Shown: positions 53,852 through 64,000 of the stretch, in pieces | Position numbering within the stretch: position 1 is the stretch's first letter | Layout of the letters: each line of letters opens with the position of its first letter | From: an uncultured delta proteobacterium | GTDB taxonomy: Bacteria; Myxococcota_A; Polyangia; Haliangiales; Haliangiaceae | Assembly (NCBI GenBank): GCA_963848295.1 | Contig: CAWKDB010000011.1 | Coordinates: forward strand, 96,001-160,000 | Length of the DNA: 64,000 bases | Reading direction: 5' to 3' | Made by a program: the position numbers and the translations under genes | Notes under the pieces: generated by a model | Told to the model about the DNA's origin: nothing | What the model saw: the letters and a program-made list of their open reading frames with translations, nothing else | Databases searched by the model: none

Positions 53852-54763
53852 TTACGACGACGGTCGCGTACCCTTGGTGATGCCGTTGAGCTCGCAGAAC
53901 GCCTTGTAGTAACCGTACGAGGCGAACCGCAGCGTGGTGTTATCGTACGCGAGCGCGTCGCCGAGAACGTCTGTCTGCCTGTGGTTTGCGCAGACCGGCG
54001 TCTCGAGGCCGCGCAGCCCGTCGCGGAGCTTCTCGGACGCCGACTTCTCGAGCGGGCTCGGGTTGCGGGACGATCTCCACATAAGCGCGTTTAGGACGGC
54101 GCCATCGCCGGCGTTACCTCGGTCGCAGTTGCCGATCTTTCGGCGCAGCGGCGCGTCGGTTGCGCAGCAGACCGCGCACATTGCGGGGAACTGACACTCC
54201 AGCGTGTGGTCGGCATCGTCACCGCGCTTGACGAGGGGCAAGTACTGGTCCGACGTCACGTGGTAGTGCGTGAAGCAGGTGTCGCTTGCGTCGAGCGATT
54301 GCTCCCTGACCTCGAGTGTATCGATGTGGATCCGGAGGTACGCGATGCAAGCGCCGCATTCCGTCGGGTCCCCCTCGTCCTCGGCCTTCTGCAGCGCCCG
54401 CCGTCTCGCCTTCTTCGAGAGCTTCGCCAGCTCCTTCGTCGGCGCCGGTTGCTCCGAGAAGCTGCGCGCGCGCTCGATCCCGCACACGGGGCAGGCGCTC
54501 GCGATCACCGGGGTGCGCCGTGCCGTGGCGAACAGCCAGACGCCGAACGCGGCGATCGCCAGCCCGGCGATCGAGAGCAGACCGCCGCAGAGCGTACCGC
54601 CGAAGTTGTCGCCGAACGGATCCTCGACGTGACATAGCCCGATGAACCAGTGGATCGCGAGCACCGCACAGAGCGGTGACACGACGAAGATGATGATCAT
54701 CTCCTTCTGCGGAATGCCCTTCCAGTAACTGAGCCGCTTGCCGACGACGACATTCTGCGTCAT
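53852..54763 (-). CDS. Hypothetical two-TM protein with several CxxC motifs
   Basis: Two hydrophobic helices; CPVC, CGAC, CAVC, CANH. The ATG is formed at the intron 3' end. Confidence 0.75.
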   Translation of the reverse strand: MTQNVVVGKRLSYWKGIPQKEMIIIFVVSPLCAVLAIHWFIGLCHVEDPFGDNFGGTLCGGLLSIAGLAIAAFGVWLFATARRTPVIASACPVCGIERARSFSEQPAPTKELAKLSKKARRRALQKAEDEGDPTECGACIAYLRIHIDTLEVREQSLDASDTCFTHYHVTSDQYLPLVKRGDDADHTLECQFPAMCAVCCATDAPLRRKIGNCDRGNAGDGAVLNALMWRSSRNPSPLEKSASEKLRDGLRGLETPVCANHRQTDVLGDALAYDNTTLRFASYGYYKAFCELNGITKGTRPSS

Positions 54764-55739
54764 TGGTAGATCTACTTTCCCTCGTTATGAGTTTCCGTAC
54801 GACCCCCGTAGAAACCGTGCTTGCGGATTTCCCGTACACGGCTTGCGGGGGGGCTTTCGAGCCAGCGGTCCTGGACAGTCTCCGGATATTCGACGGTGCC
54901 GCGCAGGCGATGGAGTCCGAGTCCGACGAAGTAGTCGCGATCCCATCTCTCGACGGCTGCGGGAGCGAGCTGCCGACTCACACGTTTGATGCGGAGTCCG
55001 CGCAGTCGCTCGTACACGTAGCTGTCGATCTGGTTGAAGCTGCGCGCGGCGTTGCCCGTGGCGAAGTAGGCTCCCCAGCCTCGCAGGATGGGGTTGAGGT
55101 CCTTGATGACCACACGGACATCCGCGTGACATCGTCCTCTTGGTGTCCGATCCTTCACCTTCTGTCGGATCCGCTTCATCGCGCGCTGCGACGGCTGGCG
55201 ATGCAGTGCCCTCTCTCGTGGCCCTTCCCTCCCGCGGCGTTGTTCGTCGCCGCGATCATCGGTACTACGACCCCGTCGGACTTCCGCTGCGCGATGTCGC
55301 CCTTGGCCTTCAGCCTGTTGACGTCACCTCGCCCTGACTCGGGCTGCGCAGACGGATCTCTCGTGTTCCGCGATGATCCTTGCACGCGTGCTGCTCCCCA
55401 TACCCCGCCGAGATCGTCATCGCCTTCCGGTGCTTGCGACGCCAATATTGCCTTCGCTGCGACATGACCAGCTCGGCTCTCGGACTGTTTCTCTGTCGAG
55501 GCTGCAGGCTTCACTTCACGTTGCGGCCCGCGTGCTTGCTTCGAGGTGATCAGCTCTTGCTGCCTCCCTCGCTTTCGATGCCCGGCTTCAGCCGTCGGGA
55601 TCTCTCCCTCTGCTGCGGGCCTGCTACTCGGCGCTCCAGCGCTTACCGAGACGGGACTTGCACCCGCTGGATCATCACAGCCTGACCCCGGGTTCGTCAG
55701 CCCTTCGGGCCGACGGTCTCCGTCGTCGTCACGACGTAC
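54762..55739 (-). mobile_element. Group II intron with RT domain deleted (non-autonomous)
   Basis: 5' GTACGTCGTGA (GUGYG-like); DI motif GGGTGCAAGTCCC; DIII-like GAAGTCCGACGGGGTCGTAGTACC...GGAGGGAAGGGCC; DV AAGCCGTGTACGGGAAATCCGCAAGCACGGTTT (54812-54844); 3' end CTACCAAT. Boundaries are +/-1 nt. Confidence 0.88.
54772..55206 (-). pseudogene. Group II intron maturase domain X remnant
   Basis: PSQRAMKRIRQKVK...LNPILRGWGAYF.TGNA...F..ID.YV; no YADD or RT motifs remain upstream. Confidence 0.88.
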
Positions 55740-55763
55740 CACGCAGGAGAGGTTACACCGAGG

Positions 55764-58700
55764 CTAGCTCCAGGGCAGGTTTCGCGTCTGCGCGACCTTG
55801 TCGTAGGTCATCTTGAATGCCCAGTTCAGCTGCTCGTTGGCGCTGTGCGCCAGCTCGTCGAGCTCCCTCGCGTCCGACTTGACCTTACCGGCCGAGCTCA
55901 TCAACACCTGCGTGTTCGCAGGGCTCATGCTGTTGACGCCACTCATGTCGCTCGTCACCTTGGCCGCGTGCTCGCGGACTGCCGCGACGACCTCGTCGCC
56001 TGTCCTGAGTTGCGCGAGGACTTTCTTCGCAGAGCGCTTGTTCTCGAACGTCGAGTTGAGCTTGTTGGTCTGCGCGGTCTGCGACGCGACGAGCCTCTGG
56101 ACGACCGTGCTCGCTTGCGATGACACGTAGGACGCCGCGTTGTGCACCTTGCCCACAGCGGCGGCGGATATCTTGGGCTCCTTCGGTTTGTCTTTGGCCT
56201 TGGCCTTGGCCTTACCCTTCTTCGGGCCGGCCGATAGCGCCGGGGTCGCAGCGGCAATCGGCGCCGGCGGCGGCGCTACCGCGGCCACTGGCCCCTTCTG
56301 GGTAGCTGCGTCGGCTTGAGCCTTCATCTTGTTCGCCTTCTCCGCGGCGACTGCCACCGCGAGACCCGCGAGGAACGTCCGCGCCATGTCTTGCTGCTTC
56401 GCTATGTCCTTCTCGGTGTCCTCGACATCCTTCACGAACGTGGCCGCGTCGTGGACGTTTTGGTCGCACTGCCTTGCGTCGTCGAGGGCCTGATCGGCGT
56501 AGCTCTTCGACTGGGCCTTGACGGACATCGCCGTGTCCATCGTCTGCTTGGCCTTGTCCTGGCCCTGGGTGCCGACCAGCTTCGAGAACTGCATGCGATT
56601 GTGCAGCGCCGTCGTGTACGCGCGCATGTCGCCCATGCTCACGCCGCACAGCCCCTCGAGCACTAGGCTGGCGATCTTGTCCTGGATCCACCCGAAGACC
56701 TTCGCGGCCTTCTCGGCGGCCCACGTCTTCACGTACCACCAGATCCGTTTGATGGGATGCCAGTGGCTTGGCTTCTCGCCGACGTCGACCTTCGGCTGGT
56801 TCTTGCTGGCGCTGTTGGCCTTGCCATCGTCCTGTTTCTTCTCGCCCGCACCGGCCTGCTGATCGCCCTTCTGGGCCGAGGCGCCGGCCGCGGTGGCCTC
56901 GGCGATGGTCCCGTTGATTCCGATCGAATGATCCATCGCCTGCGCCTGTTTCAGCGAAGCGTCATCACCCGCCTGTGCCATTGTCGCGACGGTCAGGAGC
57001 GCCTTGTGCTTGGCCTCCTGCTGCGACTTCTGGAAAGCGTAGGCGACGAGCTTCATCCGCTGCAGATCCTTCGCAGCTTTCGCGAACTCGCCGTCAGCTC
57101 CGGACAGCTTGGGCCAGTACACGAGCTCGGGGACCTCGGCGAGCTTGTCTTCCGGAGCACTACCCGCGGCGGGCGCAGGTTTGGGTGCGGGTGACGGTGC
57201 GGGTGACGGTGCGGGTGCGGGTGACGCGTTCGCGCTGGGGGGGGCGCCCGAGTCGTTCGAGCTCGTCGACGCCGGATCGACCGACATGGTCGGCTCGTCG
57301 TTGCCGTGGCTGTGCTGCGCGTCATGACCCTGGTCCCCGCCGTCCTGTGCGTCGTGACCCTGGTCCCCGCCGTCCTGTGCGTCGTGACCCTCGTCGCCAT
57401 GTTCGTCGGCGCCCTCGTCGAGGCCGTCGAGCATGCTCTCGACGTGCTCGTAGACCGCGATCTCCGGAACCTCACCCCAGGACCACGCATAGATGGCCTC
57501 GCGCTGCTCCGACTTCTCGAGCGTCTCGGCCTCGGCATGACCGCCCTGCTGAGCCTCGATCTGCTTGTTCGCGGCTTCAGCTCTCTCGCCGCTCTCGCTC
57601 TGGAACTGCGCCGCCGCGATGACCTCCATCGTCTTGCCCTTGATGTGCCACATGGTCTCCGGTAGCTCACCACCGTTGGCCTTGATCGCGATCAGGTGAC
57701 GCTGGTCCGCCTCGTGGCGGAGCTTCTTGGCCTCGTCCTCCGCGACCTTGCGCTGGTCCTGCGTAATGTTCTTGTCCTTGAGCCGATTCGCAACGATCTC
57801 CCGCTCGCCCTCGATGACGTCGGTCTCCTCCTGGAACTTCTTCGGGTCTTTCCGGAAGTCCTCGATGTTCTTCTTTGTGGTCGCTTCTTCCGCTTCCGTC
57901 TCGACTTTTTTCTCCCCTCGCTCCTTCGTGAAGTCCTTCCCGCCCTCCTCCTGGGCGCCAGCGACGGCCTTCTCTTCGCCCTTCTCGAGCTTGTCCGCGT
58001 GCTTACCGGCGGCGCGCGCGTTGCGTACGTTCTCTTTCGGCACGTGCCCGTCTTCGTCCCGGTGGTCGGCGATCTGGTTGTTCTGGTACTCGCGCGAGGA
58101 CGAGATGTCTCGGTCGATCCTCGCGCGCTCCTGGTTGCCCGCGTTCTTCCCGGCGTTGCTCTCGAGGGCTGCGTCGAGCTCTTTCTTGGAGTTGTCGGCG
58201 AACTTGTCGATCTGCTCCGTATGCTTTGCGGAAAAGCTGACCTTCTCGACGCGCCCGGCCGCGTTCTCGCCCATCTTCTCGCCGAAGCCGTCGACGCCCT
58301 TGACGAAGCTATTTTGCGATACCTTGGTCGCCCGAGCCTCGACCCCCTTCATGAAGTCCGAGTTGTTGATCTTCGTGATCAGCTTGGTACCGCGGATCTT
58401 CTCGCCAAGCGTGGCCGGTGCGCTCCACAGCTTGCTCATCATGCCCGGGCCCTCGGCCTTCTCGAGCCCGATGCCGAGCTTGTAGCCGATGTTCTTCGCC
58501 CAGTTCGCGACCGGGCCGAGTGCCTTCGCGGCGAACGTTCCGATCTTGTTCTTGACCCCTGTGAACAGCTTCCCGATCACGCCTTTCGAGGCGCCCTGGA
58601 ACCCCTTCATGAAGCCGGGCCCATAGGTCATCGCGAGGCTGAGCACGTGCCCGCCAGCCGACGTCGCCTCGTTCATCATCATGTCGGCGGTCGCGGCCTT

Positions 58701-59699
58701 TTCTTCGTTGGACGCACCCTTGCCGATCTGCTTCGCGAGCACGACGCCATTGAGCCCGGTCAAGATTCCCGACAACACGAAGCCGATCGCGTCGCAGATG
58801 ATGCCGATGACGTTGAGCACGCGCGCGACCGCCTCCACGGCGGCGCCGAGTGGCGGCAGGATCATGGCGAGCAGACCCACGATCGTGAGGACCATGCCGA
58901 TCTTGCCGCACACGTTCCCGACGATCGAGACGACGCTCTGAAACTTCGACAGGCCGCGCATGATCGAGCCGAGGCCGCCCTGGACTTTGTCGTACGGGTT
59001 CGCGCCAAAGATCGCGCCGACGTCCTTCTTGCCCAGGAAGTTGATCAGGCCGCCCTTGGCAGCCTCCATGCCACTCGCGCCGTTCTGGACGTACTTCTCG
59101 ATCTGGCCGTCGTAGCCTTGCGCGATCGCGGCCATCTCCTTGATCTTCGATAGCCGCTCGTTGGTCTCGGTTGACTTGTGCGGGTAGGCGTTGAGCCACC
59201 CGTCGAGGTTGCCATCGCCGGACATCGCCGCGGCGAGGACGAGCTCCCTCGGCGGCTTGAGTGCCGCGTCGGGGCCGGGCATCGCGGGTTTGGCGGCCTT
59301 ACCGGGAGCTTTGGGCGCTGCCGCGCCGCCCCCGGCCTTTTGTGGCGCCTTGGGGCCAGAAGTCGGAGGCTTGGGAGTGACGACCGATGGCGTGTGCGCG
59401 GCGCCAGCATCGACTCGGCCCGGCGGGCTGTCCTTGGCTTCCTTCGCGACGTCCTTGGGGTTGTTCTTCGCTTCTTCGGCCGCCTTCTCGCGCGCTTCCT
59501 TGGTCTGCTCTTCGTACTCCTCTTTATTGATCGGCGCGTCGGAGGCTTTGTCCGCAAGGCCCGACACGTAGGCCGCGGGGAAATGGGCGGCGATCGCCGT
59601 CTCGACCTTCTGGATCGCGGCGTCGTCCTTGGCCGCGTCCTTGTAGGTGTACTTGACCTCTAATGCCTTGGGGTCGAGAGGTTTGTCGGCGGTTGCCAT
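55764..59699 (-). CDS. 1311-aa hypothetical protein, candidate injected effector or membrane-active cargo
   Basis: Long clean ORF; Pro/Lys-rich N-terminus, central hydrophobic helical hairpin, coiled coils, Trp-rich amphipathic segment; no signal peptide. Function inferred from context. Confidence 0.8.
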   Translation of the reverse strand: MATADKPLDPKALEVKYTYKDAAKDDAAIQKVETAIAAHFPAAYVSGLADKASDAPINKEEYEEQTKEAREKAAEEAKNNPKDVAKEAKDSPPGRVDAGAAHTPSVVTPKPPTSGPKAPQKAGGGAAAPKAPGKAAKPAMPGPDAALKPPRELVLAAAMSGDGNLDGWLNAYPHKSTETNERLSKIKEMAAIAQGYDGQIEKYVQNGASGMEAAKGGLINFLGKKDVGAIFGANPYDKVQGGLGSIMRGLSKFQSVVSIVGNVCGKIGMVLTIVGLLAMILPPLGAAVEAVARVLNVIGIICDAIGFVLSGILTGLNGVVLAKQIGKGASNEEKAATADMMMNEATSAGGHVLSLAMTYGPGFMKGFQGASKGVIGKLFTGVKNKIGTFAAKALGPVANWAKNIGYKLGIGLEKAEGPGMMSKLWSAPATLGEKIRGTKLITKINNSDFMKGVEARATKVSQNSFVKGVDGFGEKMGENAAGRVEKVSFSAKHTEQIDKFADNSKKELDAALESNAGKNAGNQERARIDRDISSSREYQNNQIADHRDEDGHVPKENVRNARAAGKHADKLEKGEEKAVAGAQEEGGKDFTKERGEKKVETEAEEATTKKNIEDFRKDPKKFQEETDVIEGEREIVANRLKDKNITQDQRKVAEDEAKKLRHEADQRHLIAIKANGGELPETMWHIKGKTMEVIAAAQFQSESGERAEAANKQIEAQQGGHAEAETLEKSEQREAIYAWSWGEVPEIAVYEHVESMLDGLDEGADEHGDEGHDAQDGGDQGHDAQDGGDQGHDAQHSHGNDEPTMSVDPASTSSNDSGAPPSANASPAPAPSPAPSPAPKPAPAAGSAPEDKLAEVPELVYWPKLSGADGEFAKAAKDLQRMKLVAYAFQKSQQEAKHKALLTVATMAQAGDDASLKQAQAMDHSIGINGTIAEATAAGASAQKGDQQAGAGEKKQDDGKANSASKNQPKVDVGEKPSHWHPIKRIWWYVKTWAAEKAAKVFGWIQDKIASLVLEGLCGVSMGDMRAYTTALHNRMQFSKLVGTQGQDKAKQTMDTAMSVKAQSKSYADQALDDARQCDQNVHDAATFVKDVEDTEKDIAKQQDMARTFLAGLAVAVAAEKANKMKAQADAATQKGPVAAVAPPPAPIAAATPALSAGPKKGKAKAKAKDKPKEPKISAAAVGKVHNAASYVSSQASTVVQRLVASQTAQTNKLNSTFENKRSAKKVLAQLRTGDEVVAAVREHAAKVTSDMSGVNSMSPANTQVLMSSAGKVKSDARELDELAHSANEQLNWAFKMTYDKVAQTRNLPWS
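57184..57225. repeat. 12-bp/6-bp coding tandem repeat (GGTGCGGGTGAC; Pro-Ala-Pro-Ser)
   Basis: About 3.5 copies visible inside the 1311-aa gene. Confidence 0.85.
57325..57391. repeat. 30-bp coding tandem repeat (GHDAQDGGDQ)
   Basis: TGACCCTGGTCCCCGCCGTCCTGTGCGTCG x2 identical, plus partial flanking copies. Confidence 0.9.
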
Positions 59700-59711: not shown

Positions 59712-60881
59712 TCAGCGCGAACGGAACGTCTGGCGGGCACGGGCGGCCTGGTTCACTTTTTCTGCAATGTCGGCAAACGTCTCCGGGCCGATCCGGTCAG
59801 CAAGGGCAGCTATGTACGGGCGAAACAGGTCGGTTGCAGCCGAACCCAGCTTGTCCTTGAGCGAACCATGAGCCTCTGCAAATGTACGGTACGCCGAGGC
59901 CAAATCTCCCTTCATCTCGTAGATCTGCGACATCAAGGCGACAGCGGACGCATAGCGGGGAAGATCGCCCTGGGAAACGGCGCTCTGGGCGATCTCGAGA
60001 CACCGGTCCAGCGCGGCCTGGGTCTGGCCTTTCTGAGTCAGCAAGCCGACTTGGCCGACCAGGGCGGCCATGCGTAGCGAATCGAGCCCGTGCTCTAGCG
60101 CGGAGTCGCGTGCGACTTGAAGGTGTTTCTCCGCCTCGTCCCGACCGACCTGATCATCCCGCTGCACGAGCGCGCCGGCGAGTGCGATACGCATCTCGAG
60201 CTCGTCCTCGACCGCGTCGACCCGTTTGGCGATCGCAACCGCCTCGCGCAACGCCACGCACGCGCGCTGGTGATCACCGAGCGCGAGCGCCATGGCGGCG
60301 CGCAATTGTCGGGATGCGAAATCGGTCTCGAGTAGCTCGTCTTGATCCTCGTCGGGCGTCATCGAGGGAAATACGTCGAGCCGCTCCCTGGCGCGTACGT
60401 GCTCGCCCTGCTCTACCGCGAGCTCCACCCAGCCGAGCGCGAGCCGCATGACGGCGCGCCGGCCGGCGAGCGTCGTCGGCTCCTCGGCGGTCGCGTCGCT
60501 CACTTCTACCAGCCGGGTTTCGGCCGCGGCGAAGTCCTTGCGCCGGATCAGGGTGCGGGCGAGGAGTGTACCTGCGTCGAGCATGCAATTCAGATCGCCC
60601 GCAACCCGGTCGCGGGCGCGGCCGACAAGCTGCTCGACGCCCTCGAAGTCCCCATCCGCCAACTTGACGTGCGCTAGCCGGAGGAGGATCCGGCCCTCGA
60701 GCGCAGGCTCGGCGAGTCGATCGACGAGTGCAGCCGCCTCTTCGAGCGGCGCACGTACGACGGGCTGGCGATGGCCGAGAATCGGCTCGGCCTCCGCGAG
60801 ATCGAGCAGCGCGATCGCGAGCGCTTCTCCGCCGGTCGCGCGGGCAAGGTCGACACGTGCCCTCACCTGTGCGAGCGTCAC
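59712..60881 (-). CDS. TPR-like all-helical protein
   Basis: Helical repeats; GTG start at 60881 with TACAGT 6 nt upstream; stop 12 nt before the 1311-aa gene. Confidence 0.75.
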   Translation of the reverse strand: MTLAQVRARVDLARATGGEALAIALLDLAEAEPILGHRQPVVRAPLEEAAALVDRLAEPALEGRILLRLAHVKLADGDFEGVEQLVGRARDRVAGDLNCMLDAGTLLARTLIRRKDFAAAETRLVEVSDATAEEPTTLAGRRAVMRLALGWVELAVEQGEHVRARERLDVFPSMTPDEDQDELLETDFASRQLRAAMALALGDHQRACVALREAVAIAKRVDAVEDELEMRIALAGALVQRDDQVGRDEAEKHLQVARDSALEHGLDSLRMAALVGQVGLLTQKGQTQAALDRCLEIAQSAVSQGDLPRYASAVALMSQIYEMKGDLASAYRTFAEAHGSLKDKLGSAATDLFRPYIAALADRIGPETFADIAEKVNQAARARQTFRSR

Positions 60882-60905
60882 CGCTAGACTGTACCACGAG
60901 GCACC

Positions 60906-62045
60906 ATGCTCCTCGGCAGCGCCGCTCGTGCGATGCTGTTCGTGCGAATGACGCGGGATGCGGCGCAGCTGATCCGGATCGCGAGGTTGCGCCGGTTCGT
61001 TGGGGTGTTCGCGCGCGGCGGCGATCGCGAGGCGACCGCGGCTGCGCTCGCCTCGCTCTCGGCGGCGTCGCAGGCGAACGGCTTCGCGGGCGACGCGCTG
61101 CTGCGCGCACGCCAGGCCGCGGAGCTGTTGTGCAGCGACGACGATCCGGAACCGCGCGCTCGGTCGCTGCTCCACCTGGGCGCGGTGTGTCTCGACACCG
61201 GCGATGGCGAAGCATCGATCGCGGCGGCCGAGCTCGCCGCCGAGCTCGCGGCAACGCTCGAAGAGCCGATCAGGTCGCAGTTGATCGGCTGTGCGTCACT
61301 GCTCGGCGGCATCGCGCACTCGCTCGACGGCGATGACGCTCGGGCACGCGCGGCGTTCGACGACGCACGTGAACGGATGGTCGCCGCCGAGCAGCCGGAA
61401 GGCGCCGCGCTCGCGCTCACCCAACAAGGCCTGCTCGACGTCGCCGCCGGCCGGCCCGACGCGGCCGAGCTGTGCTTCCGGTTCGCTCAGGAGTTCTATC
61501 GCCGCGCCGATCGCGCAGGTGCGGTCGCGGAGGTCTCGGCGCTCGCCGCGCGAGCGCTTGCCGAGGCCGGCCTCGCGAACGTCGATCGCTGGTACGTCGA
61601 GGCGATCGCCGACGCCGACGCGACCGGGTCGGCGCGGCTCGCGGCGGAGCTCGTGGTCGAACGTGCGCTCCGGCTCGAGCGCGACGGCCTGCGCGACGAA
61701 GCGCTCGCGATGGCGGCGGATGCCGCACGCCGCTGCAAGCGGCTCGCGGATTCGCGCGAGCTCGTGATGCGCGCGCGCCTCGTGTCGGCACGGCTGACCG
61801 CCGACCCCGGCGACGTGCTTCGTCACCTCGAAGCCGCGTTCGAGATCGCGCTCGACGTCCGCGATCCCGAAGCGCTCGGCGGCGTCATGGAAGTCGTCGT
61901 CACCGCGCTCGTGAACGGCGGGTTCGCGAGCTCGACCGGCGCGGGCTGGCGGCTCGTCGACCGGTTTCGCGAACGGCTCGGCGCCGCCGGGTTCGCGCAC
62001 CTCGCGGATGCCGCGACGGTCGCGCTCGTCGATCTTCGCGAATAG
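60906..62045 (+). CDS. TPR-like all-helical protein
   Basis: Helical repeats (ARSLLHLGAVCLDTGD; ALALTQQGLLDVAAG); start may be 60948. Confidence 0.7.
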   Translation: MLLGSAARAMLFVRMTRDAAQLIRIARLRRFVGVFARGGDREATAAALASLSAASQANGFAGDALLRARQAAELLCSDDDPEPRARSLLHLGAVCLDTGDGEASIAAAELAAELAATLEEPIRSQLIGCASLLGGIAHSLDGDDARARAAFDDARERMVAAEQPEGAALALTQQGLLDVAAGRPDAAELCFRFAQEFYRRADRAGAVAEVSALAARALAEAGLANVDRWYVEAIADADATGSARLAAELVVERALRLERDGLRDEALAMAADAARRCKRLADSRELVMRARLVSARLTADPGDVLRHLEAAFEIALDVRDPEALGGVMEVVVTALVNGGFASSTGAGWRLVDRFRERLGAAGFAHLADAATVALVDLRE

Positions 62046-62080
62046 CCGGCGCGCGGTGTACGCTCGAAGCCAGGCACACG

Positions 62081-64000
62081 ATGGCCGGCGACGACGAGGT
62101 TTTCGGATACCAGGACGGAGGCGAGCAACTCTCCGACTACGCGGAGCGCTTCGGGTTGCTGTTCGACCGCTTGCACGCGATCCGCGACGTCATGCCCGAG
62201 GCGGCGGCGGTCGTGCCGCCGCGGGTCAAGCGCGAGCTGCTCGAGGGCGCGAGCGAGAGTCTGTTCGCGATCAACCGTCGCATCATCGATCTCGACGCCG
62301 CGATCGAGCGCCGCACCGAGGTCTCCGAGGAGCTCGGCATCGCACTTCCGCTCGAGCTGCTGCGCGGCCGGTTCGCCCTCGTGGAGCTCGACATCCAGGT
62401 GTTGTCGATGATGTTCGCGCTCGAATCGGGCGGCGCGTTCAACCCCTACGACACGCGCAGCACGCGGACCGACCGGGTCGATCCCGAGGTCGCGTTCTTC
62501 ATGGCGTTGCTCGGTGGCGGCGAGCGCGATGACGCCGAGCGCGCGCGCGCACGATTTCTTCCCGACGCGCCGCTGATCGAGTCCGGCATGGTGCTGCTCG
62601 TCGGCGATGCCGACTCGCCGATCATCTACAAGCGGATCCGGCTGTCGGAGCGCACGCTCGAGTTTCTCTCGGGCAGCTTCGCGCCGCCGCCGTCGTTGCT
62701 CGGCACGGTCGCGACGTTCGCCGCGACACCGCCTGGTGCCGACGCGTTCCTGTTCGAGGATCCCGCGCTCGTCGGCCAGATCGCACGCACGCTGTCGAGC
62801 CCCGAGCAGATCGTGATCTTGCGTGGCGCGCCCGGCGTCGGGCGCAAGTCGCTGGCCGGCGCCGCCGCGCACGAGCTCGATCGCGCGATGCTCGTCGTCG
62901 ACCTGTCGCGCGTGCTGCTTTCGGCCGACGAGCTCGACCGAACGCTGCGCACGCTGTTTCGCGAGGCCCGCATGCAGGGCGCGGTGCTCGTCCTCGATCG
63001 CGCCGACGAGTTTGCGGACCGCGAAGGTCAAGCCGCGCTATGGCCGTCGCTCACGAACCGGATCGCGCGTTCGTCGCTGCCGATCGCGCTCGTCTGCGAG
63101 AATCTCCCGAAGTGGCTCGACCGCCTGCAACGCGTCCGGGTCGAGCTCGCGGTGCCGTTTCCGTCCGAGGAGATCCAGCACCGGCTGTGGGTCCGGCACT
63201 TGCCGCCGAGCTTGCACCTCGAGCCCGGGCTGTCGATCGATTCGATCGTGCACATGTACTCGTTGTCGTGCGCATCGATCATCGCGACCGCGGACGAGCT
63301 GTCCCGCACCGACCACATCTACGCGCGCGGCGGTGTGGTCGATCAGCAAGGGCTCGTCGACATCGTGCGCACCCGGCTCGCTCACGAGCTCGGGGCGCTC
63401 GCCGAGGTCGTGCACACCACGCTCGAGTGGAAAGACGTCGTGTTGTCGGACGACGTCTACGAGCGCGTCATCGAGTTCCTCAACTTCGCGCGCCACCGCG
63501 GCGTCGTGATGCGCGAGATGGGCTTCGGCCGCAAGCTCGCGTACGGGCGCGGGCTGTCGGCGATGTTCTCGGGCCCGCCCGGTACGGGCAAGACGATGAT
63601 CTGTACGCTGCTCGCCAAAGAGCTCGGGATGGAGCTCTATCGCATCGATCTGTCGCAGGTCGTCAACAAGTACATCGGCGAGACCGAGAAGAACCTCGGC
63701 AAGGTGTTCGACGAGGCGGCGCGCGGCCAGGTGATGCTGCTGTTCGACGAGGCCGACTCGATCTTCGCGAAGCGCACCGAGGTCAAGTCATCGCATGATC
63801 GTTACGCGAACCTCGAGGTCAACTACCTGTTGCAACGCATGGAGGGCCACGAAGGCATCGTCGTGTTGACGACGAACTCCGAGAGCGCGATCGATAAGGC
63901 GTTCCTGCGGCGCATTCGGTTCCGCGTGCGTTTCCCGTCCCCGAGCGATGCCGATCGCGCGCGGCTGTGGCGCGGCATGGTGCCGAAAGAGGTCAAGCTT
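62081..64000 (+). CDS. AAA+ ATPase, eCIS Afp15/Pvc15-like (runs off window end)
   Basis: Open from ATG 62081. Degenerate first AAA domain (GAPGVGRKS); second domain [73 protein letters not shown]. Confidence 0.9.
   Translation, partial: MAGDDEVFGYQDGGEQLSDYAERFGLLFDRLHAIRDVMPEAAAVVPPRVKRELLEGASESLFAINRRIIDLDAAIERRTEVSEELGIALPLELLRGRFALVELDIQVLSMMFALESGGAFNPYDTRSTRTDRVDPEVAFFMALLGGGERDDAERARARFLPDAPLIESGMVLLVGDADSPIIYKRIRLSERTLEFLSGSFAPPPSLLGTVATFAATPPGADAFLFEDPALVGQIARTLSSPEQIVILRGAPGVGRKSLAGAAAHELDRAMLVVDLSRVLLSADELDRTLRTLFREARMQGAVLVLDRADEFADREGQAALWPSLTNRIARSSLPIALVCENLPKWLDRLQRVRVELAVPFPSEEIQHRLWVRHLPPSLHLEPGLSIDSIVHMYSLSCASIIATADELSRTDHIYARGGVVDQQGLVDIVRTRLAHELGALAEVVHTTLEWKDVVLSDDVYERVIEFLNFARHRGVVMREMGFGRKLAYGRGLSAMFSGPPGTGKTMICTLLAKELGMELYRIDLSQVVNKYIGETEKNLGKVFDEAARGQVMLLFDEADSIFAKRTEVKSSHDRYANLEVNYLLQRMEGHEGIVVLTTNSESAIDKAFLRRIRFRVRFPSPSDADRARLWRGMVPKEVKL

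Follow-up and report, generated by a model that had tools for sequence, protein, structure and literature searches.

A group II intron behind a start codon, and its clade that probably finds start codons preceded by a -10-like box

A specialised clade of IIB1 introns is known whose members insert at initiation or termination codons (Avi.groEL, EcKTE56.groEL; Michel et al. 2007 as cited in PMC12584367), and the available text of that source describes these IIB1/CL1 introns as having 300-700 nt inserted at the base of domain I, a length of about 3.2 kb for EcKTE56.groEL and the exchange of the host stop codon for another. Introns of class IIC insert after intrinsic terminators (PMC8919778, PMC7306698, PMC4028801), and those of class E/F (Ge.ur.I1, Pe.th.I2) are described as carrying RT and maturase only and as having an EBS2 that is dispensable for splicing in vitro (PMC3753933, PMC3552965). 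A literature search covering few subscription papers returned no description of introns at leaderless starts, and the available texts of PMC8919778, PMC4424553, PMC4028801 and PMC7306698 make no mention of such targeting.

The window analysed here is the whole stretch of 64,000 nucleotides from an uncultured delta proteobacterium. On its minus strand a 979-nt element (55739-54761) separates the GTG of a 303-aa gene from its codon 2. Its RF02003 match, its domains V and VI and its maturase remnant identify it as a group II intron; with the layout, these bear out the original prediction of a group II intron placed exactly at a start codon and supplying a replacement ATG. Along the minus strand, the stop codon of a 1311-aa ORF at 55764 is followed by TAACCT, 7 nt and GTG (55755-55740, as had been predicted), then by the intron and ACG CAG. 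The intron 3' end reads CTACCAATG (54769-54761), and its last ATG opens the 303-aa ORF. The features of the locus are as follows.

55764..59699, minus: 1311-aa ORF upstream of the intron, stop 21 nt before the host GTG
55750..55755, minus: -10-like box TAACCT; EBS2 can pair with its final two bases plus the one after it
55740..55742, minus: original host start codon GTG, predicted 5' exon end; IBS1 together with the preceding C
54761..55739, minus: group II intron, 979 nt, RT-deleted, with GUACG start and AUG end
55735..55739, minus: 5' end GUACG, whose A breaks the epsilon pairing
55516..55669, minus: match to Rfam RF02003 (group-II-D1D4-4), 80 bits
55490..55493, minus: short EBS2 (GAGA), predicted 3-bp pairing to the 3' end of the -10 box, with covariation in the clade
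55463..55467, minus: predicted delta at 55467 (partner 55503) and EBS1 CAUG at 55466-55463
55276..55278, minus: J2/3 CGA, with C as gamma, which fits the terminal G
55206..55207, minus: junction of a 1036-bp deletion (RT domain and start of domain IV gone)
55176..55742, minus: 188-aa frame from the host GTG through domains I-III, its stop overlapping the next ATG (ATGA)
54772..55179, minus: 135-aa maturase (X domain) remnant running through domains V and VI; Pfam GIIM, E 1e-16
54812..54844, minus: domain V with AGC triad and 5-nt loop; G-to-A change at 54835
54765..54807, minus: domain VI with bulged A at 54767, the seventh base from the intron end
54761..54763, minus: replacement start codon ATG, the last three bases of the intron
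53852..54763, minus: host gene, whose 303-aa product is predicted to be a membrane protein and has Cys pairs

The 1311-aa ORF gave no Pfam or NCBIfam family; the 303-aa protein gave none either, an Atlas search returning unnamed clusters only. The C-terminus of the 1311-aa protein was also found upstream of the 303-aa homolog in five of the nine relatives' loci tested, the giant gene and the 303-aa gene remaining neighbours in relatives, and read-through from the giant ORF could supply the intron with a long 5' exon. Beside the 1311-aa gene lies a 487-aa ORF (59712-61175, minus), no family being found for either, and on the opposite strand (61472-64000, plus) an AAA ATPase that carries the winged-helix domain PF22977, a kind of ATPase known from loci of contractile injection systems.

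Relatives of the intron were collected with the protein of a full-length sister from the same genome (2015 nt, C11:621014-619000), which matches TIGR04416 with 417 bits (cut-off 300), as query. To the 80 genome loci and 80 metagenome loci fetched were added relatives in the order, 18 regions from multi-copy genomes and plasmid references; 214 loci were scanned, 5 duplicate loci and 7 mis-called rows were removed and 185 records were kept. Against a profile of the 5' RNA, 153 records scored at least 230 bits. This profile included three upstream bases and the boundary picker favoured a GUGCG-like motif after T plus one base, so that the start-codon count given below could be inflated, the -10 count not. 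A tree of 175 RT sequences returned the same set as one clade of 138 with support 0.999; the references in it for class F and groups g1-g5, namely g1 (L229), g3 (L228) and Rh.sp.I1 (L227), fell outside. Host titles in the clade name Myxococcota, Planctomycetota, Acidobacteriota, Actinomycetota, Pseudomonadota and others; some Firmicute outgroup introns sit behind terminator-like hairpins instead. Clade introns are about 1.9-2.1 kb long and, in the two members scanned, their protein holds RVT_1 and GIIM only, with no endonuclease domain. The 5' end is GTGCG in 109 of 135 members, TTGCG in 16 and TCGCG in 6; UUGCG or UCGCG, not GUGCG, opens 22 members (L027, L029, L031, L038 and other actinobacterial ones). 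Multi-copy genomes and an empty allele imply that the clade is mobile.

Compared with the sister, to which it is 82% identical (803/977), the window copy lacks the 1036 bp after 55207, that is the entire RT, a loss absent from the original prediction; all six ribozyme domains are still present despite the deletion. One contig of run X1, which may be the source sample, reads across the junction, and another X1 contig covers the GTACG start without differences, the coverage of this run excluding the domain V change. Two mismatches fall at conserved ribozyme positions: the epsilon pairing, GC:GC in 129 of 135 clade members, is broken by the A of GUACG, and the G-to-A change at 54835 in domain V is in no other clade member listed. 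The joined, RT-deleted form was absent from 137 other family genomes, many of them incomplete and two of them (the unpublished G037 and G038) counted as misses, and on this tally the idea of a mobile non-autonomous family was rejected. The window copy is thus likely a decaying and immobile member of the clade.

Other remnants were also noted. A 5'-truncated third copy is present as a 3' fragment (L002, G000:C2:436390-436800, minus), and its terminal ATG begins an ORF that looks like the N-terminus of a ketopantoate reductase. Two further near-identical RT genes (G000:C11:721481-722023 and C2:795884-796417) belong to another intron type and are about 36% identical to the clade RTs.

Where clade members insert proved highly uniform. 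The codon preceding the 134 5' junctions is ATG in 108, GTG in 22, TTG in 2, ATT in 1 (L051) and AAT in 1 (L117), hence a start codon in 132, and the homologous introns therefore do not lie at random positions. At the 3' side (n=130) the intron ends in ATG in 123 cases and GTG in 7, preceded by A in 125; the remaining five are ATG after T or C. Upstream of the start, TANNNT was found at 6-7 nt in 108 of 125 sites and at 6-8 nt in 115, leaving 10 without it, compared with 1.7% in shuffled flanks and 0.45% (87/19489) at other ATG/GTG in the flanks, all 125 flanks being distinct from one another. TANNNT about 12 bp before the start is described as a mark of leaderless genes (PMC3160421). The "typical leaderless start" of the original prediction was checked genome-wide, not for the window: the motif precedes at most 853 of 5387 genes predicted by a crude gene finder (16%), compared with 0.13% for in-frame starts inside genes. 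In G103 (6/7), G136 (3/3) and G009 (2/2), near-identical copies lie behind boxed starts that are unrelated to one another, the seventh G103 copy following another copy's ATG. Two introns (L215:1345-5397 and L106:68, RT-forward orientation) stand in tandem, directly behind the terminal ATG of another intron.

The genes behind the introns appear to be left whole. An ORF of at least 80 codons follows at 99 of 107 sites; among the first 48 (of 98) such ORFs scanned, 38 have Pfam matches, nearly all to different families and including dnaX-, mnmE-, smpB- and trpS-like ORFs, and in 23 a Pfam domain starts within 25 residues. An exact empty allele of the sister's site (L231) reads box, 7 nt, ATG, codon 2, as predicted for an intron-less allele, and intron-free orthologs at that site have the box in 18 of 24 cases. 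For the window site no exact empty allele was found, the 303-aa homologs being 29-71% identical, and contigs of four runs held no joint skipping the intron; nevertheless five distant, syntenic, intron-free homologs show the same layout of giant gene, box, 6-7 nt and start. These junctions, downstream ORFs and the empty allele strongly support insertion at start codons with the host ORF left intact, as had been proposed. As a separate observation, the closest 303-aa homolog (67%; L084, G043:C194) is broken into pieces and has no giant gene alongside.

Other signals considered at the insertion site were set aside. The predicted quasi-palindrome CTGCGT-G-ACGCAG is present with 6-bp arms but has no part in targeting, arms longer than 3 bp occurring at one of 101 reconstituted sites, that of the window. 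A built-in -10 box in the intron 3' end was found in only 23 of 130 members, the window copy not among them, and a built-in Shine-Dalgarno before the terminal AUG in 40 of 130 by a loose pattern.

The boundaries were placed by covariation. The predicted EBS1 loop is delta-CAUG, with CAC in ten GTG-targeting members and CAA in one TTG-targeting member, and its fourth base tracks the base preceding the start codon. Watson-Crick pairs with EBS1 are formed by the first start-codon base in 114 of 128 introns (shuffled 96, z 7.5) and by the base before the start codon in 102 of 128 (shuffled 71, z 10.7); L117 has A as its first EBS1 base and T just before GUGCG. An EBS1 longer than 4 bp was rejected, there being no covariation at positions 7 and 8. 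Delta pairs are U-A in 140 cases and G-C in 8, and gamma is C opposite a terminal G in 129 of 129 members scored, whereas outgroups pair G with C and A with U. From EBS1, delta and gamma together, the intron would start after the codon and end in AUG: the cuts are predicted at start codon|GUGCG and AUG|codon 2, AUG being the intron's last three bases. Of the options originally offered for the window copy, the GUACG start with AAUG end is backed by this covariation and the GGUACG start is not. The boundary consensus GUGYG...AY is departed from by the clade, with a 3' end UG and gamma changed to C; this UG end is a boundary variant and does not exclude the clade from group II introns. In the Firmicute outgroups L057, L074 and L138, which end in UAG, gamma is likewise C opposite the terminal G, and judged by them the terminal G may be older than AUG mimicry.

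Pairing further upstream was searched in the 84 introns with a 19-nt linker. Among 266 position pairs the highest-scoring was position 6 (in EBS2) with hexamer position 5, complementary in 67 of 84 versus 29 shuffled (z 9.6); position 7 with hexamer position 4 gave z 4.3, and a nearly invariant A faces the invariant T. Alignment to the ATG instead of the box lowers the signal (z 6.3). Shared host composition could raise these scores, though the peak is position-specific. The pairing is loose, the key pair at the six boxed G103 sites being Watson-Crick in two, G-U in two and mismatched in two, and the TA of the box has no RNA partner. Thus a 4-bp EBS1 tracks the start codon and a short EBS2 (2-4 bp) the 3' half of the -10 box. 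A third pairing, of EBS3 to the base that opens codon 2, was rejected, the composition there (G43 C39 A36 T10) being no different from that in the genome's leaderless-like genes (p 0.36).

The frame of the host start runs open through about 190 ribozyme codons and on into the RT in 59 of the 113 members that were scorable (21 of 134 were not), the other frames being open to the RT in 9 and 0 members; the remaining 54 are out of frame, among them G103, the most amplified intron, and the larger part of the actinobacterial branch. Twenty distinct offsets preserve the frame and the first variable hairpin keeps it in 132 of 135, so many frame-keeping length changes pointing to selection, with kin in these counts not independent. 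The RT stop lies within 10 nt of the terminal ATG in only 26 scored members, most being about 100-124 nt away. In the window copy, the 303-aa protein would most likely come from unspliced RNA, by a chain of translation from the GTG frame through the ATGA overlap into the maturase remnant, whose stop lies 8 nt before the terminal ATG, likewise in the sister, and on to that ATG; this chain could be chance (one in five by rough estimate).

The best explanation, at a probability of roughly 0.72, is that the window copy is an RT-deleted, likely immobile member of a clade whose introns sit after boxed start codons, end in their own AUG and likely find their sites in DNA through short pairings with the start codon and with the box's 3' half. 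It is drawn from sequence, namely insertion position, boundaries, EBS1 and EBS2 covariation, the terminal AUG/GUG and the frame open in about half of the clade; transcription starts, splicing and the extended RT are as predicted from it. The target would be DNA because the paired bases include some upstream of the likely transcription start, and probably single-stranded because pairing is only about 7 bp and the protein has no endonuclease domain; a melted promoter region would be the most likely source, the melted span matching the paired span. The first TA of the box would be read by RNA polymerase or by the intron protein. Once inserted, the intron would rely for RT production on a borrowed host promoter and, in many members, on a borrowed host start codon as well. 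Splicing, with a 5' exon of perhaps only 3 nt, would give back the exact leaderless mRNA, and read-through from the giant gene would help it in the window copy. Unspliced RNA would still allow the gene to be expressed from the terminal AUG, coupled in some members to the RT stop.

The strongest competing account, which is appreciably less probable, has the motif read as plain sequence on single-stranded DNA at the replication fork, with selection removing misplaced copies. In GC-rich DNA such a motif is uncommon and for the most part marks gene starts already: taken by itself, it falls on coding-like starts of this GC-rich genome in 1240 of 1873 cases (66%), compared with 94 of 107 intron sites (88%), so that sequence reading and selection could explain the pattern without RNA polymerase. 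Group II introns without an endonuclease domain, as here, are known to use replication-fork DNA, and EBS2 must pair with a T normally held by sigma. On the other hand, real starts remain commoner at intron sites than at motif sites, the spacer varies over 6-8 nt while pairing stays anchored to the box, and the TA is without an RNA partner.

The switch originally suggested, in which the window copy is retained so that its splicing governs the 303-aa gene downstream of the giant one, is unsupported and unlikely. The six ribozyme domains have outlasted the deletion, a full-length sister could provide the protein, and a link between intron splicing and host expression has been reported for other cases (PMC12584367); however, the family sits in unrelated genes, homologous genes lack the intron, the deletion is unique among 138 genomes, epsilon and domain V carry mismatches, the start of domain IV, the usual protein-binding site, is lost, and the 303-aa gene has an in-frame start whether spliced or not. 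Recognition of the start codon alone, the box reflecting survival of copies that happened to be transcribed, would suit an intron described as having no promoter of its own (PMC12584367) and the sites without a box, but is improbable, since intron bases covary with the box itself, recent identical copies are nearly all boxed and the box is present at just 1557 of 334117 EBS1-compatible sites of the genome. A cut inside the codon (AU|G), with a GGUGCG start, would give the canonical AU end and agrees with the ATT before L051, yet is just as hard to uphold against the gamma C matched to the terminal G in all scored members, delta being the base before CAU, the first EBS1 base of L117 covarying with the base directly before GUGCG, and a branch A that is seventh from the end only if the G is included.

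A further-reaching form of the preferred reading, start-codon and box pairing in DNA, is advanced tentatively, at less than even odds: a lineage of RNA-guided retroelements that would target active promoters, invading the melted non-template strand of leaderless promoters through -10 box and start-codon pairing, splicing with a 3-nt 5' exon and keeping domains I-III coding so that the host start makes RT, a promoter counterpart of the terminator-targeting IIC introns. Promoter targeting might then be older than AUG mimicry. At L117:895 a clade member stands behind AAT, with a -10 box and 6-nt spacer in front; its EBS1 matches this target and its 3' end is AAG. It may represent promoter targeting without start-codon mimicry, its contig stopping at the intron 3' end.

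The interest lies in the family, the window copy mattering little as a decaying member. The clade would represent a third insertion strategy for bacterial group II introns, at the point of highest expression with genes left unbroken, the targets being the fronts of ordinary and housekeeping genes. It makes testable the use of a transcription initiation bubble as target by a retroelement, the splicing of a group II ribozyme with a three-base exon, and how a ribozyme of more than 500 nt also remains an open reading frame; its insertion sites could serve as markers of candidate leaderless starts in uncultured bacteria.

Among organellar introns, some proteins are in frame with an upstream exon and so made from the host start, as proposed here, but these introns lie within conserved genes and have long 5' exons. 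The C.te.I1 intron of Clostridium tetani likewise has shifted, unusual splice sites that serve host translation, but is described as a single domesticated locus (PMC3919590, PMC4024640). Like the IIB1 groEL clade, the present one is a monophyletic group tied to translation signals and inserted next to an initiation codon, with added sequence in the basal domain I loop, targeting of start and stop codons being known already from that IIB1 clade; the long insertion that defines the IIB1 clade is absent here, the first conserved motif lying 26-75 nt from the 5' end in 135 of 135 members and the hairpin adding 0-48 nt. The present introns are also shorter than the IIB1 example, have no endonuclease domain, and on domains (two members) do not carry a CL1-type protein, the RT tree being without CL1 sequence; the available description of the IIB1 clade makes no mention of a promoter box, leaderless genes, a terminal AUG or an in-frame RT (PMC12584367). 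With class E/F (PMC3753933, PMC3552965) the clade shares the protein content, a similar length, the 5-nt domain V loop and an extra internal loop in Id3, although Ge.ur.I1 ends in AC. By description, So.us.I2 (1943 nt) and My.va.I1 (1987 nt), listed there in "putative non-coding sequence", may be catalogued members of the clade. With IIC introns, as far as these are described, it shares a short EBS1, the lack of an endonuclease and the targeting of transcription signals across unrelated genes. Unlike IIC introns, whose consensus end is CCUACYCGAU and which have no EBS2, clade members do not follow intrinsic terminators: they have an AGC triad and a short, covarying EBS2, end in CUACCAAUG with the terminal AUG, and would target the start of the transcription unit, thereby gaining expression.
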